Below the pieces are notes generated by a model, which had not been told where the DNA came from, did not search any database, and saw only the letters and a program-made list of their open reading frames with translations. A program made the position numbers and the translations under genes. A stretch of 64,000 nt of DNA, taken from assembly GCA_963813535.1 (NCBI GenBank), contig CAWEZH010000002.1:832001-896000 (forward strand), read 5' to 3'. This document shows positions 5,196 through 9,659 of the stretch, in pieces (positions within the stretch are counted from its first letter, which is position 1; each line of letters opens with the position of its first letter). The stretch comes from an uncultured Chloroflexia bacterium. GTDB lineage: Bacteria > Chloroflexota > Limnocylindria > Limnocylindrales > CSP1-4.

Positions 5196-6620
5196 TCACC
5201 CATCCGTACTGCGCCGGTCCGGACCTGTCTCATCGAGAGCGGCGATCTCATCGAACGTGCCGACGATCGTCCGGATGGCGCCCTCGTAGTTCCGGAGGTC
5301 GAACCACTCGTTCGGCGCGTGGGCGAGGTCGTTCGGCTGGGTGAAGCCTTCGAGCACGACCGGCAGGCCCAGGATCGCCTGGAAGCTGGCGGCGATCGGG
5401 ATCGAGCCACCGGAATTGATGAGGACGGGTGCGCGACCGAATACCGCCTCCAGGGCCCGCGCCGCCGCACCGACGAACGGGTGATCGATGGGTGTCCTGG
5501 TGGCACGACCCATCCCCAGCGGGGTGACGGTGACGTCGACACCGGGCGGGGCGATCTCCTCGACGAAGGCCTTGAACTTCTCGAACACGTCATTCGGTTC
5601 CTGGTCGGCGACGAGTCGCGTACTGATCTTCGCGTGGGCGGTCGCCGGGATGATCGTCTTCGAGCCTTCGCCCTGGAAGCCACCCCAGATGCCGTTGACG
5701 TCGAGCGTCGGCCGAACCGACTTCCGCTCCAGGGTCGAGTAACCCGACTCACCGACCAGAGCAGGTACGCCGGTCTCGACTCGGAACGCCTCTTCATCGA
5801 ACGGCAGCGCAGCGATGGCCTCCCGCTCGGAATCGGTCGACGCGACGACGTCGTCGTAGAAGCCCGGGATGCGGATCCGACCGTCCGCTCCCTTCAGCGC
5901 AGCGATGATCTGGGCGAGGGCGACCACCGGATTGGCGACGGCGCCTCCGTAGCTCCCCGAATGGAGGTCGATCGCGCCGAGGCGGACGTCGATCTGCGCA
6001 TACATCAGGCCGCGCAGCGAGACCGTGATCGCCGGGACGTTGCCCTCGAAGAAGCCCGTGTCGCTGATGATCGCGGCGTCGGCACCCAGGCGTTCACGGT
6101 TGGCCGTCAGCCATGGATCGAGGTGGACGCTCGAGCTCTCCTCCTCGCCCTCGAAGACGTACCGGACGTTGACGGGCAGGCTGCCGCGGGTCGCGAGCAG
6201 GGTCGCCGCCGCGACGACGTGGGCGTGGATCTGGCCCTTGTCATCGGCCGAACCCCGACCGATGAGCCGCTCGCCATCGACCACGGGCTCGAACGGCTCC
6301 GTGCGCCACTCGTCGAGGGGGTCGACGGGCTGGACGTCGTAGTGACCGTAGACGATCACCGTGGGCGCGCCCTCGGCGTGGAGCCAGTCGCCGTAGACGA
6401 TCGGGTGGCCGCCGGTCTCGCTGACATCGACGTTCTCGATACCGGCGGAACGGAGCTCGTCGGCGAGCCACTCGGCCGCGCGACGGACGTCGGGAGCGTG
6501 CTCGGGCAGGGCCGAGATGCTCGGGATGCGGAGGAACGCCTTGAGTCGCTCCAGGCGCTCGTCGCGGTGCGCGTCGAGGTACGACTCGAGCTCGGCAGGG
6601 TCAGCGATACGGTCGGACAT
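5196..6620 (-). CDS. M20 family dipeptidase
   Basis: YGHYDVQP, GRGSADDKG, EGEEE, DLHSG, HAPNE. Confidence 0.92.
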   Translation of the reverse strand: MSDRIADPAELESYLDAHRDERLERLKAFLRIPSISALPEHAPDVRRAAEWLADELRSAGIENVDVSETGGHPIVYGDWLHAEGAPTVIVYGHYDVQPVDPLDEWRTEPFEPVVDGERLIGRGSADDKGQIHAHVVAAATLLATRGSLPVNVRYVFEGEEESSSVHLDPWLTANRERLGADAAIISDTGFFEGNVPAITVSLRGLMYAQIDVRLGAIDLHSGSYGGAVANPVVALAQIIAALKGADGRIRIPGFYDDVVASTDSEREAIAALPFDEEAFRVETGVPALVGESGYSTLERKSVRPTLDVNGIWGGFQGEGSKTIIPATAHAKISTRLVADQEPNDVFEKFKAFVEEIAPPGVDVTVTPLGMGRATRTPIDHPFVGAAARALEAVFGRAPVLINSGGSIPIAASFQAILGLPVVLEGFTQPNDLAHAPNEWFDLRNYEGAIRTIVGTFDEIAALDETGPDRRSTDG

Positions 6621-6684
6621 GGGCCGGAAGTCTATCGGCGGGCGCCGCGGGGCGTTGAGTCAGTGGTAAGCGTTCGCCTCCACG

Positions 6685-7392
6685 ATGTCGTCCGTGGCCG
6701 AGTCACGGATCTCCCGCGCGGATCGGCGGGCGAGGACCATCGGCGAACGCGTCGGCTTGGAGTTGCGCCAAGCGCGACTCATCGCTGGACTCACCCTCAC
6801 GCGGGTGGCAGGTGCCGTTCGCCTGTCGGCGAGCGAGGTCAGCCGGATCGAGCGCGGTCGTGCCGCCTGGGTGGATGTGCCCACGCTCGCCCGACTTGCG
6901 GCGGTCGTCGGGCTCGACCTTTGGGTGCGCCTCTACCCCGGCGGGGAGCCCCTGCGCGACATGGCGCACCTCGCTCTCACCGATGCCTTTCGCGCGATGG
7001 TCGGGCCGGGGCTGATCGTCCGGGCCGAGGTCCCGATCGGGGATCCACGTGACCTGCGCGCGTGGGATCTCACTCTCACGGATCGACGATCCGGGTGCTG
7101 CGGGGTCGAGCTCGAGACCCGGCTGGTCGATGCTCAGGATCAGGCACGTCGAGTAGCGCGCAAGGCCGGCGATTCCGGATCCGAGCGGGTCCTCCTGGTC
7201 GTCGCTGACAGCCGAGCCAACCGGGCTGCCGTCCAGGCCGCGGCGCCCCTGCTCTCAGCGACCTTCGCGATCGACGATCCGGCGGCCTACGACGCCCTGG
7301 CTCGGGGTGACGTGCCACCGCGGGACGCGCTCATCCTTGTGAAGGTGCCGCGGCCGCGCCGGAGGCACCCATTGCCGTCGCACGGCAGCTGA
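6685..7392 (+). CDS. XRE-type HTH fused to a PD-(D/E)XK restriction-endonuclease-like domain
   Basis: N-terminal LRQARLIAGLTLTRVA...SEVSRIERG HTH; C-terminal AEV...WDLTL...GVELETR pattern. Confidence 0.75.
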   Translation: MSSVAESRISRADRRARTIGERVGLELRQARLIAGLTLTRVAGAVRLSASEVSRIERGRAAWVDVPTLARLAAVVGLDLWVRLYPGGEPLRDMAHLALTDAFRAMVGPGLIVRAEVPIGDPRDLRAWDLTLTDRRSGCCGVELETRLVDAQDQARRVARKAGDSGSERVLLVVADSRANRAAVQAAAPLLSATFAIDDPAAYDALARGDVPPRDALILVKVPRPRRRHPLPSHGS

Positions 7393-7593
7393 CGACGCGT
7401 TCGGCCTCGTTAGCGTCGTCCTTTGCCGCACCACGGTAGAAACACGCTCCGGTTGCCGCTCCACGGCATGCTAGCGGGCATAGCGAGCCACCGGCGTCGC
7501 CAGCTGCCGCCCCACGGCAACGACGGCCAGTCTCACGGACACAGCGGTCGATCGTTGCCGCCCCACGGCCGGTCAGGCGGCACTCCACGGCAA
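7372..7593. repeat. Array of 17-bp palindromic repeats, consensus TTGCCG-CNCCA-CGGCAA, with unique spacers
   Basis: Copies at 7372, 7423, 7453, 7504, 7555 and a degenerate copy at 7577; periods 51, 30, 51, 51, 22. Confidence 0.8.
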
Positions 7594-7663
7594 TGCAGGC
7601 GGCGCGGCCGCCGGCCGGCGCCACGGCGCGACGCAGGCGGCACGGCCACAGCCCCGGAATCGA

Positions 7664-7692
7664 ACGAGCGGGCCGGAGTTCGGCCCGCTCGT
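7664..7692. terminator. Strong hairpin, probable terminator of ftsH (possibly bidirectional)
   Basis: ACGAGCGGGCCG-gagtt-CGGCCCGCTCGT, 12-bp perfect stem; weak U-tract. Confidence 0.6.
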
Positions 7693-7751
7693 CGCGGCGT
7701 ACGTGTTCTGGAGGCCCTTCGACGCCGTGGTGGCGCCGGATCAGCAGCCGG

Positions 7752-9659
7752 TCAGGCCGGCTGCGGGTTGGGCTCGGGGATCGGCTGTCCTGGTCCGATG
7801 ACCGATGGCACGCCGCTGTCGGTGGACTTCGGTGGCAGGTCCGTGAAGAGCGTCTCGAACCCTTCGGCGTCGACGGTCTCCTCGGCCACGAGCTTCTCGG
7901 CAAGGGCCACGAGGCGGTCGCGGTGGGTCGTCAGGACCTCCGTCGCTCGCTCGTACGCCTTGTCGATGATGGCGCGGACTTCCTCGTCGATCTGCTTCGC
8001 GATCTCGTCGCTGTAGTTGCGCTGCTCGCCGATCTCGCGGCCGAGGAAGACCAGCTCGTCGCGCTTCCCGAAGGACAGCGGGCCGAGCTTGTCGCTCATG
8101 CCGAACTCGGTGACCATGCGCCGCGCGAGGTCGGTCGCCTTCTCGATGTCATTGCTGGCACCGGTCGTGGTGTCTCCGAAGATGAGTCGTTCGGCGACAT
8201 TGCCGCCGAGCAGGCCCGCGATCTTGTCCTCGAACTCGGTCTTGGACTGCAGATAGCGGTCCTCCTGGGGCAACGCCATCGTATAGCCGAGGGCCATGCC
8301 GCGGCTGATGATCGTCACCTTGCTGACCGGGTCGCACTTCGGCAGGATCCGCTGGACCACGGCGTGACCACCCTCGTGGTAGGCGATGATCGCCTTCTCG
8401 GCATCCGAGATGACGCGTGACTTGCGCTCCGGTCCGGCCACGATCCGCTCCAGGGCCTCCTGGAACTCGGACATGCCGATGACCTTCTTGTTGCGACGGG
8501 CCGAGAGGATCGCCGCCTCATTCACGAGGTTGGCGAGGTCGGCGCCCGAGAAACCCGGCGACTGTCGCGCGACGCCGGCGACGTCGACGCCCTTGTCGAG
8601 CGGCTTGCCCTTGGTGTGCACGTTCAGGATCTCGACACGACCCTTCATGTCCGGGCGGTCGAGGATGACCTGGCGGTCGAAGCGGCCGGGCCGCAGGAGC
8701 GCCGGATCGAGCACGTCGGGCCGGTTCGTGGCTGCGACGACGATGACGTTCGTGTTCGTATCGAAGCCATCCATCTCGACGAGGATCTGGTTGAGGGTCT
8801 GCTCGCGCTCGTCATGGCTGCCGCCCAGGCCGGCGCCGCGCTGGCGTCCGACCGCGTCGATCTCGTCGACGAAGACGATGCACGGCGAATTGCGCTTGGC
8901 CTGGTCGAACAGGTCGCGGACGCGGCTGGCGCCGACGCCGACGAACATCTCGACGAACTCCGAGCCCGAGATGCTGAAGAACGGCACGCCCGCCTCACCG
9001 GCGACCGCGCGAGCCATCAGCGTCTTGCCGGTGCCCGGAGGGCCGACGAGCAGCACGCCACGCGGGATGCGCGCGCCGAGCGAGTTGAACTTCTCGGGGA
9101 ACTTCAGGAACTCGACGACCTCCTGGAGCTCGGTCTTGGCCTCGTCGACGCCGGCCACATCGGCGAACGTCACCACGGTCTTGTTGCCGAGGAACATCCG
9201 CGCGCGGCTCTTGCCGAACGAGAGGGCCTGGTTATTCGTGCCCTGCGCCTGGCGCATCATGAAGAAGATGAAGCCGCCGATGATCAGCAGTGGCAATACG
9301 GCGGTGAGCAGCAGGCCCAGCCACGACGTGTCGGGCGCGGGGGTCGCCTGGAAGATGTTGTCCGGCAACGGCTTGCCGCCCTTGTCGGCGGCCGCCAGCA
9401 TGTCGGGGAACACCTGGGTCAGGACCGTGGGGACGATGACCGTATAGGTGGTGGGCGGTTGGTCGTTCCGTTCGACCGTCAGCGTCGTGCCCTGCTGGGT
9501 GACCTTGGCGATCTTGCCCTGGCTAACCTCGGCCAGGAACTGGGAATAGCCGGTGTTGGTCGGCTGGCCTGTGGTCGTGATCCATGTGAACAGCAGTGCT
9601 GCCGTGCCGACCACAAGCACGAGCATCACGATGCCGTTCCGGAAGAACTTGGGGTTCAA
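7752..9659 (-). CDS. ftsH: ATP-dependent zinc metalloprotease FtsH
   Basis: Two TM helices, [22 protein letters not shown]; TTG start after GGAGG. Confidence 0.97.

Follow-up and report, generated by a model that had tools for sequence, protein, structure and literature searches.

The window analysed here is a 64-kb stretch (64,000 nucleotides) of the genome of an uncultured Chloroflexia bacterium. Within it we studied a gene for a helix-turn-helix (HTH) protein with a predicted nuclease fold and the array of short palindromes that follows the gene. This module is real and unusual. On balance, we lean toward reading it as part of a lineage-specific repeat family paired with its cognate HTH-nuclease-fold protein, a partnership that would resemble in its working, without belonging to, the system of repetitive extragenic palindromic (REP) sequences and REP-associated tyrosine transposases (RAYTs). 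The reading is carried by the predicted fold of the protein, the correspondence between gene and palindrome, the dispersal and polymorphism of the palindrome clusters, the concerted change of the palindrome, and the helical phasing of the arrays. Each family paralog appears to have its own palindrome of 15 to 22 bp, arranged in a phased cluster beside the gene and mostly also in other intergenic clusters, and these clusters seem to gain, lose, and amplify units between sister genomes. An earlier note, made from the letters of the window alone, had described the locus as CRISPR-like (clustered regularly interspaced short palindromic repeats) and had offered three explanations for it: an RNA-guided system, an element like REPs or bacterial interspersed mosaic elements (BIMEs) tied to the nuclease, and an operator array for the HTH. 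The second is the best fit of the three, and the third survives as its DNA-binding half.

Throughout, G000 is the window's own genome (3.28 Mb, completeness 92.9%), G024 is its sister, and G354, G005, G016, G010, G021 (completeness 91%), G052 (71%), and G053 are relatives. C1, C2, and C3 are contigs and L-numbers are loci. Family types are named by their palindromes: the window gene is C-type, its G000 paralogs are A and B, and D is found elsewhere.

Organization of the gene and its array

The gene at 6685-7392 is the sole plus-strand gene amid minus-strand genes for a DnaB_C-like ATPase, an M20 peptidase, FtsH, and VanW, as the open reading frames (ORFs) and neighbors confirm, and together with its repeats it forms the compact module that had been proposed. 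The features of the locus are as follows.

6621..7660, no strand: gene-plus-array cassette of about 1.05 kb, from the ftsH terminator to the M20 peptidase start, delimited by cassette-less relatives
6685..7392, plus strand: C-type HTH-nuclease-fold gene, 235 aa (ORF list; 110 homologs; full-length model with a predicted local distance difference test score, pLDDT, of 88.7)
6751..6918, plus strand: XRE-type HTH, residues 23-78 (Pfam HTH_31 and HTH_3), with the presumed recognition helix at about residues 48-56
6961..7353, plus strand: predicted PD-(D/E)XK fold domain, residues ~93-223 (domain-only model with pLDDT 91.8; structural matches)
7372..7388, no strand: palindrome 1, TTGCCG-TCG-CACGGCAG, overlapping the final codons (LPSHG) and ending 2 bases short of the stop
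7391..7420, no strand: inverted repeat GACGACGC ... GCGTCGTC in the first spacer (sequence self-comparison)
7423..7439, no strand: palindrome 2, one mismatch to the core (pattern search)
7453..7469, no strand: palindrome 3 (pattern search)
7504..7520, no strand: palindrome 4 (pattern search)
7555..7571, no strand: palindrome 5, one mismatch (pattern search)
~7575..7593, no strand: decayed copy retaining the right half-site CCACGGCAA (self-comparison)
7595..7647, no strand: GC-rich tandem repeat, period 19, 2.8 copies, with CACGGC half-sites (tandem-repeat search)
7664..7692, minus strand: hairpin with a 12-bp stem at the ftsH 3' end, then GTTCGATTCC; a conserved boundary outside the cassette

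All six copies lie where the earlier note had placed them. The core of the array is TGCCG-N5-CGGCA, in fuller form TTGCCG-N3-CACGGCAA, with five copies starting at 7372, 7423, 7453, 7504, and 7555. When TGCCGNNNCACGGCA was searched with at most one mismatch, it gave 8 matches in the window against a shuffle mean of 1.02, and none of 100 shuffles reached 8; six of the eight rows fall in 7373-7570, the first site being matched on both strands. Across G000 there are five exact pattern matches, of which three are in the window array. The copies are not identical, since 1 to 5 positions of the 15-17-bp core differ. Spacer lengths are 34, 13, 34, and 34 bp, as had been claimed, and the inverted repeat GACGACGC/GCGTCGTC of the first spacer is likewise present; the further claim that the spacers are mutually unrelated fails, because stretches taking in a repeat and its flank are 70-79% alike between array units in self-comparison and the array has a 132-bp super-period (7373 to 7505, 7424 to 7556).

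The site of palindrome 1 is kept at the gene end in many orthologs, whose C termini read LP(S/P)HG. A distal short tandem repeat after the palindromes recurs in many family loci (L008, L016, L017, L029, L036) and in L007 consists of about 10 copies of a 16-bp unit. The C-type palindrome is absent from the gene's own upstream region, 6621-6684; its sites lie downstream instead.

A predicted restriction-endonuclease-like fold

By its structural models, the window protein is an XRE HTH fused to a PD-(D/E)XK (restriction-endonuclease-like) fold. Pfam detects the HTH alone, at residues 23-78 (HTH_31, E 1.6e-10, 41.6 bits against a cut-off of 27; HTH_3, E 2.3e-6, 28 bits against a cut-off of 23), an NCBIfam search of the protein returned nothing near any cut-off, and the C-domain is covered by no Pfam or NCBIfam family. 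A sequence-profile search of the PDB likewise returned HTH proteins only. The HTH is structurally matched by the restriction-modification (R-M) controllers C.BclI (Z 10.4), C.AhdI (Z 10.0), and C.Esp1396I, and also by ClgR (Z about 10). The full-length AlphaFold model (pLDDT 88.7) has a second domain besides the HTH; because most of its Foldseek and VIA matches were to the HTH, the C-domain was modeled separately. The resulting model, built on an 18-sequence alignment, has a pLDDT of 91.8, a predicted template modeling score (pTM) of 0.87, and the topology H-E-E-E-H-E. Its top 50 matches in VIA-align are almost exclusively PD-(D/E)XK proteins, the best being XisH-like 2okf (Z 9.2, 105 aligned residues), AF1548 (8.8), the nuclease domain of NucS (2vld, 8.8), and Card1 (7.9), with Can2, Hjc, YaeQ, VRR-NUC, Type II enzymes, and TnsA among the others. 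Foldseek matches of the C-domain are weaker, with YaeQ and Hjc at a best E-value of 3e-3. In the ESM Atlas, residues 90-225 matched only the family's own Chloroflexota clusters, apart from a lead to Replic_Relax (0.75).

Among 39 homologs, down to 34% identity, eight residues do not vary (D92, E115, D128, D149, Q151, R155, K160, and R180), and E142 persists in at least 90%. The fold model and the conserved E115, D128, and E142-x-E144 bear out the earlier description of an XRE HTH joined to a restriction-endonuclease-like E...D...ExE motif. K160 lies on the helix after E142-x-E144, and the canonical lysine position is variable. The signature D128 ... E142-x-E144 is compatible with an active site and is no proof of one.

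The protein is predicted to form a symmetric dimer. The homodimer model has an ipSAE of 0.74, against 0.00 for the best of three controls, with an interface at residues 8-92; at least 96% of contacts are common to the runs, and the partner pLDDT is at least 81. Among solved proteins, 20 of 30 pairs of one chain and 1 of 23 single chains attain the ipSAE mark, and since XRE dimers have already been solved, the pass may reflect likeness to known structures.

Each gene type has a palindrome of its own

Three family genes are carried by G000, each lying next to a cluster of a different palindrome. Downstream of the A gene (C1:185300-185959) lie four GGTCAC-N3-GTGACC sites, the B gene (C2:247157-247795) has TGGAAC-N8-GTTCCA sites upstream, and the third is the window gene. 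We also scanned G000 without reference to the genes, for any palindrome with a 5-bp stem that recurs at least three times within 450 bp, and set aside by eye the coding repeats and GC-rich low-complexity matches. What remained was exactly the A, B, and C families: the window array, seven A clusters, and three to four B clusters. Further A arrays are at C2:981371, 1090529, 1542881, and 1574051 and at C3:44398, and further B arrays at C2:994418 and C3:277954. In total G000 has 16 exact A sites (49 with at most one mismatch) and 6 exact B sites (16 with at most one mismatch), spread over at least 7 and at least 4 clusters, respectively, and several A clusters consist of near-identical 72-bp tandem units. 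The clusters sit between convergent, divergent, and tandem genes, with about 5 of 11 between convergent 3' ends.

The strict rule of at least three same-key palindromes in the flanks was satisfied by 6 of 24 family loci and by 19 of 1,500 random placements; one family locus with Ns was dropped. Read by eye, a subjective count, arrays are present at about 20 of 25 family loci. C-type palindromes are dispersed in G354, G024, G021, and G052. The scattered repeat families each go with their own gene type, except in G024 (A) and in G021 and G052 (C). The two genomes with a D-type gene hold 9 and 8 D-type palindromes (at most one mismatch). Three others, in which the closest D-like match reaches 43%, 38%, and 50% identity, hold 2, 2, and 1; one D-type site, common to all five genomes, is probably unrelated.

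The scan of G000 also matched a proline/threonine/aspartate-rich coding repeat at C2:1129593-1129930, in which GATCC-N6 palindromes lie in a PDPTP-like frame and which is unrelated. A separate hairpin repeat with the core CGGCTCCGGTCCCGGAC ... GTCCGGGCC occurs at C2:1121540, 1122289, 1123537, and 1128870 in G000; its sequence is unrelated to A, B, and C.

Concerted change of palindrome and recognition helix

The ideal C-type form is the 17-bp palindrome TTGCCGTG-N-CACGGCAA, and orthologs of 59-85% identity retain TTGCCG-N3-CACGG variants. The ortholog in G354, which is 64% identical, has instead the stem TCTCG...CGAGA, in which both sides are changed and the loop is kept. This variant stem is found at no fewer than five other loci of G354 with the same 81/131-bp spacing, and exact TCTCG...CGAGA sites number 6 in G354, 0 in G000, and 1 in G024. 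Comparison of these sites shows a palindrome that has changed in concert across a genome, with compensatory stem changes. The recognition helix reads SPAEVSR in G354 and SASEVSR in the window protein.

Helix signatures sort with palindrome type: S-x-S-E-[VL]-S-R in C, S-x-S-Q-V-G-R in A, S-H-T-Q-x-x-R in B, and S-x-A-Q-Y-S-R in D. This grouping agrees with a protein-repeat partnership, yet it is not independent of descent because the groups are clades.

Presence and absence of clusters between sister genomes

We compared orthologous sites of G000 and G024, whose flanks are 86-94% identical; the comparison is unrooted, so gain was not distinguished from loss. One site has 5 units in G000 against 1 degenerate copy in G024, and a second has 4 against 1. 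At a third, an A-type array and a gene for a 222-aa GNAT acetyltransferase (L046:2382-3296, that is, G000:C2:1542881-1543796) are missing in G024. At the junction of this missing segment there is a CATGGG microhomology, of which the left half of a palindrome forms part. Conversely, two G024 arrays are missing in G000, one of them replaced by 9 nt, and a C-type array of five copies in G024 corresponds to a remnant in G000.

G005, G016, and G010 lack the C-type cassette itself: their ftsH-M20 spacer is about 100-110 bp long and holds the hairpin only. In G021 the spacer is about 318 bp long, with one palindrome-like remnant and the gene absent. The alignments show dispersal of the clusters and presence/absence polymorphism between sister genomes.

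Helical phasing of the arrays

Sites at 0, 51, 81, and 132 bp are common to the window array, L028, L030, L052, L054, and the G354 copies. Over 30 hand-picked site spacings from three families, we obtained a period of 10.25 bp (R 0.80), which none of 5,000 random sets equaled; the test overstates the case, because homologous arrays share ancestry. Even so, the phasing speaks for proteins assembled along one face of the duplex rather than for RNA or single-strand hairpins.

Distribution of the family

The source annotation of the 110 close homologs names only XRE regulators, and most of these homologs come from contigs 1-4 kb long. Among 1.84 billion representatives, a profile search returned 555 family members at E<=1e-30. 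Of 301 genomes sampled from the phylum, 28 have the family, with 1-9 copies each, and all 28 belong to two families of one class, where 13 of 15 and 14 of 15 genomes are positive. It is confined in this sample to one class of uncultured soil Chloroflexota, the Limnocylindria. Searching plasmid and phage collections with the window protein by tblastn gave no match.

Copies of the gene within a genome are paralogs of 35-45% identity, and orthologs at 59-85% identity keep the same position, with gene, array, conserved hairpin, and ftsH. Neighbors of family genes include ftsH and M20, sigma-factor-like 3' ends, a HAD-like gene, and GNAT; no methyltransferase or partner gene is beside the members read, with no PADLOC scan made. 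D/E-type genes of five genomes (L033, L034, L036, L016, L058) adjoin the 3' end of the same minus-strand gene. This neighbor, read by eye as sigma-70-like, marks a second syntenic home of the family. Where assemblies are fragmented, many of the family genes begin about 450-500 bp from the end of a contig. Such positions, like the short contigs, are expected if assemblies break in flanking repeats.

Other features of the locus

The ftsH hairpin was found in all orthologous loci and also in the empty ftsH-M20 spacers of G005, G016, and G010. Directly after it, at 7650-7663 on the minus strand, GTTCGATTCC resembles a tRNA T-loop and is kept in relatives, including cassette-less ones; despite this likeness, ARAGORN found no tRNA in 6000-9000. 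The spacer upstream of the HTH gene is tandemly duplicated in the orthologous loci L007:1395-1490 and L030:2300-2370, with GCGTTGAGTCGGCGGT three to four times in G024 and GGAAGTCTATCGGTGGC twice in G053, and CCGATAGACT before the M20 start is conserved among orthologous loci. Promoter and terminator consensus scans of 6300-8000 found none. RNA folding of 7360-7700 gave z-scores of -2.4 for the plus and -2.9 for the minus strand, which single out neither a strand nor an RNA role.

Soil metagenome contigs in public runs cover the C-type gene, and none of those aligned bridges 7394-7599 or spans the whole array. One metatranscriptome contig of 187 nt maps to 7007-7193 with 7 differences. These data are too sparse to support either transcription or variation of the array. 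The GC content at third codon positions of the three G000 family genes is 0.72-0.80, against 0.79 for long ORFs, and as far as base composition can tell there is no sign of foreign origin.

Alternative explanations

Several observations weigh against a repeat family mobilized by its own nuclease. The helix and site types track the protein tree, as would be expected from vertical descent alone, and the compared genomes are kin, so the correspondences between gene and palindrome are not independent of one another. The C-type motif is nearly local in G000, with 3 of 4 sites (at most one mismatch) in the array plus a remnant at C2:14225xx; the argument from dispersal therefore rests on paralogs and relatives. 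This same locality answers the earlier concern that the motif might be scattered genome-wide independently of the gene, which is not what G000 shows. G024 holds 10 exact A-type palindromes, and its sole A-like gene is 59% identical and apparently frameshifted (L059:1785-2440, that is, G024:C4:86785-87440, where tblastn matched residues 5-57 and 60-222 as two pieces that differ in frame). C-type arrays are present in G021 and G052, in neither of which a C-type gene was found. Palindrome copies number tens per genome, below the hundreds usual for REPs. The third catalytic position, E144 in the window protein, is E, I, V, or D in the family, where the canonical signature has K. Junctions of filled and empty sites show no target-site duplication and no convincing terminal inverted repeat, and the spacings behind the helical period were chosen by hand.

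The main rival explanation is a plain transcription factor or nucleoid protein, for which the palindromes would be operators or architectural sites, the nuclease fold would serve sensing or assembly, and nothing would be mobilized. An XRE HTH, a predicted dimer, and palindromic, helically phased sites are what such a regulator would have, and some clusters lie between divergent genes (L043, L047, L048, and the B-type gene's own upstream region). Against this stand the clusters between convergent 3' ends, the position of the window cluster downstream of its gene, and arrays in which 72-bp units follow one another almost unchanged. At orthologous sites, sister genomes differ in having or lacking whole clusters, the acidic residues at nuclease positions are invariant, and dispersed copies retain the 51/81/132 internal spacing, as copies of one composite element would. 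We consider the regulator unlikely, though it deserves to be taken seriously.

An orphan restriction-like or defense/addiction nuclease with a fused C-protein-like controller, whose palindromes would be control or decoy sites, is improbable. The HTH is structurally nearest to the R-M controllers C.BclI, C.AhdI, and C.Esp1396I, and many Type II enzymes are among the matches of the C-domain, but the family members read have no methyltransferase or partner gene beside them (within the limit given above), none was found on plasmids or phages, and the position of the gene is syntenic and vertically kept. We give still less credence to a neutral, unstable minisatellite that merely adjoins an unrelated regulator gene. 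Array content differs strongly even at 85% ortholog identity, L007 combines one palindrome with about 10 copies of its 16-bp unit, and copy number varies between sister genomes, all of which a minisatellite would explain; it would not explain why the core palindrome is kept down to 59% ortholog identity, why stem changes are compensatory, or why each of the three G000 genes has its corresponding array.

The original CRISPR-like reading, in which a transcript processed at hairpins would guide the nuclease, can hardly be maintained. It drew on 34-bp spacers in three of the first four intervals, palindromic repeats, and an adjacent nuclease gene. The array is not CRISPR because its repeats are too short (15-17 bp) and mutually different, its spacers are unmatched, and Cas1 was not found. 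No cas genes were seen, in line with the earlier note, and a search of G000 (completeness 92.9%) for Cas1 (PF01867), whose control was positive in 7 of 14 known genomes, found none. The window spacers have no match beyond 15 nt elsewhere in G000, and neither they nor the array DNA matched phage and plasmid collections, which speaks against their derivation from foreign DNA; an Rfam scan of 6000-8500 at E<=1 gave no match. In family A the "spacers" belong to a repeated 72-bp unit, and the phasing fits double-stranded DNA.

A decayed coding repeat (LPxHG) that once extended the protein, raised as a possibility in the earlier note, was rejected and has next to nothing to recommend it: the first four window periods (51, 30, 51, 51) are multiples of three in frame with the gene, and many orthologs end in LP(S/P)HG, but the first spacer holds two stops, orthologous arrays have periods of 50, 52/79, and 51/80, paralog arrays have periods of 61-82 with one array upstream of its gene, the same palindromes occur in intergenic clusters far from family genes, and the G354 variant would alter the protein reading while the stem pairing persists. 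The window periods are multiples of the helical period, and that they also divide by three is chance. REPs driven by a RAYT were likewise rejected for G000, since a search for a Y1/RAYT transposase (PF01797) found none there.

A proposed mechanism and its implications

Under the repeat-family reading, the window array would be the gene-proximal cluster of putative binding sites of the adjacent homodimeric protein. The dimer may bind the palindromes on one face of double-stranded DNA, and its nuclease domain could then nick or cut at them. Repair or copying at such breaks would amplify units in tandem and occasionally seed new clusters. In working terms, this would be a counterpart of the REP/REPIN-RAYT systems (REPINs being REP doublets that form hairpins) built on an unrelated enzyme.

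More tentatively, the family may represent a second, independent invention of a partnership between a repeat and a domesticated enzyme, in which the nuclease, guided by its HTH, recognizes and cuts phased double-stranded clusters, amplifies composite elements of about 130-150 bp, spreads them between the genes of its host, and co-evolves in specificity with its repeats; the compensatory change of TGCCG/CGGCA into TCTCG/CGAGA throughout one genome would exemplify this. We find this possible, with less confidence than the pairing itself. REP-type repeats are common in bacteria, and to our knowledge the RAYT tyrosine transposase is the only enzyme known as a REP partner. Searching the literature by title or abstract, we found nothing on REP-like repeats tied to an HTH-PD-(D/E)XK protein and nothing on such repeats in Chloroflexota; in PMC2701414 the match was confined to the reference list.

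What the reading would bring to light is an unannotated family of at least 555 sequence clusters, each member paired with its own palindrome family, and the pairing would account for the breaking of assemblies of these organisms at family genes. If the nuclease acts on its sites, repeat-enzyme partnerships evolved more than once and on different chemistry, and the family would offer natural, compact, sequence-programmable DNA binders or cutters whose pairs of recognition helix and half-site could be read from genomes. If the protein is a regulator only, it would still be a new architecture of HTH and nuclease fold with unusually clear cognate sites.

Comparison with known systems

The TnsB sites of Tn7 and the ends of Mu also hold several phased binding sites for a protein that the element encodes. 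The gene copies here, however, are paralogs of 35-45% identity rather than recent transposon copies, and no terminal inverted repeats or target duplications were seen. With CRISPR arrays the locus shares regularly spaced short palindromic repeats beside a nuclease gene; CRISPR repeats are about 23-55 bp long and near-identical, whereas those here are about 17 bp and the structure is repeated in scattered intergenic copies.

The operators of Cro/CI and of R-M C-proteins are closer in design, since there too an XRE dimer (predicted here) faces pseudo-palindromes of 15-20 bp grouped by its own gene. The present arrays differ in having up to six sites, placed downstream, and in that the site groups recur elsewhere in the genome; a nuclease-fold domain is present, and R-M partner genes are absent beside the members read. 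The arrangement of an autoregulatory XRE operator, with sites upstream, is seen at the B-type paralog and not at the window gene. With PD-(D/E)XK proteins that carry a DNA-reading domain (NucS/EndoMS, XisH, Card1/Can2, Type IIS/IIE enzymes, TnsA), the family shares the core fold and acidic positions, but it has no membership among them at the level of sequence, and its motif is D...E-x-E/I/V with the invariant K on the next helix.

The nearest parallel is with REP/BIME sequences and their RAYT gene (TnpA-REP), and with REPIN-RAYT systems (PMC3337134, PMC5581495, PMC8266576, and 10.1101/2022.05.22.493013). In both cases short palindromes are clustered in intergenic DNA, and each repeat family goes with a single-copy gene that is inherited vertically and has the family's repeats on its flanks; in both, repeat family and gene change together between lineages, and orphan repeats occur where the gene is missing. 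REP/BIME palindromes are described in PMC3733652 as carrying a conserved tag, GTAG or CGTC, at their 5' end. The protein here combines an HTH with a predicted PD-(D/E)XK fold where the RAYT is a Y1 HUH transposase, and copies number tens per genome rather than hundreds. Finally, the repeats here form direct, helically phased arrays with a spacing of 51-132 bp, which points to recognition of double-stranded DNA rather than of single-stranded hairpins.

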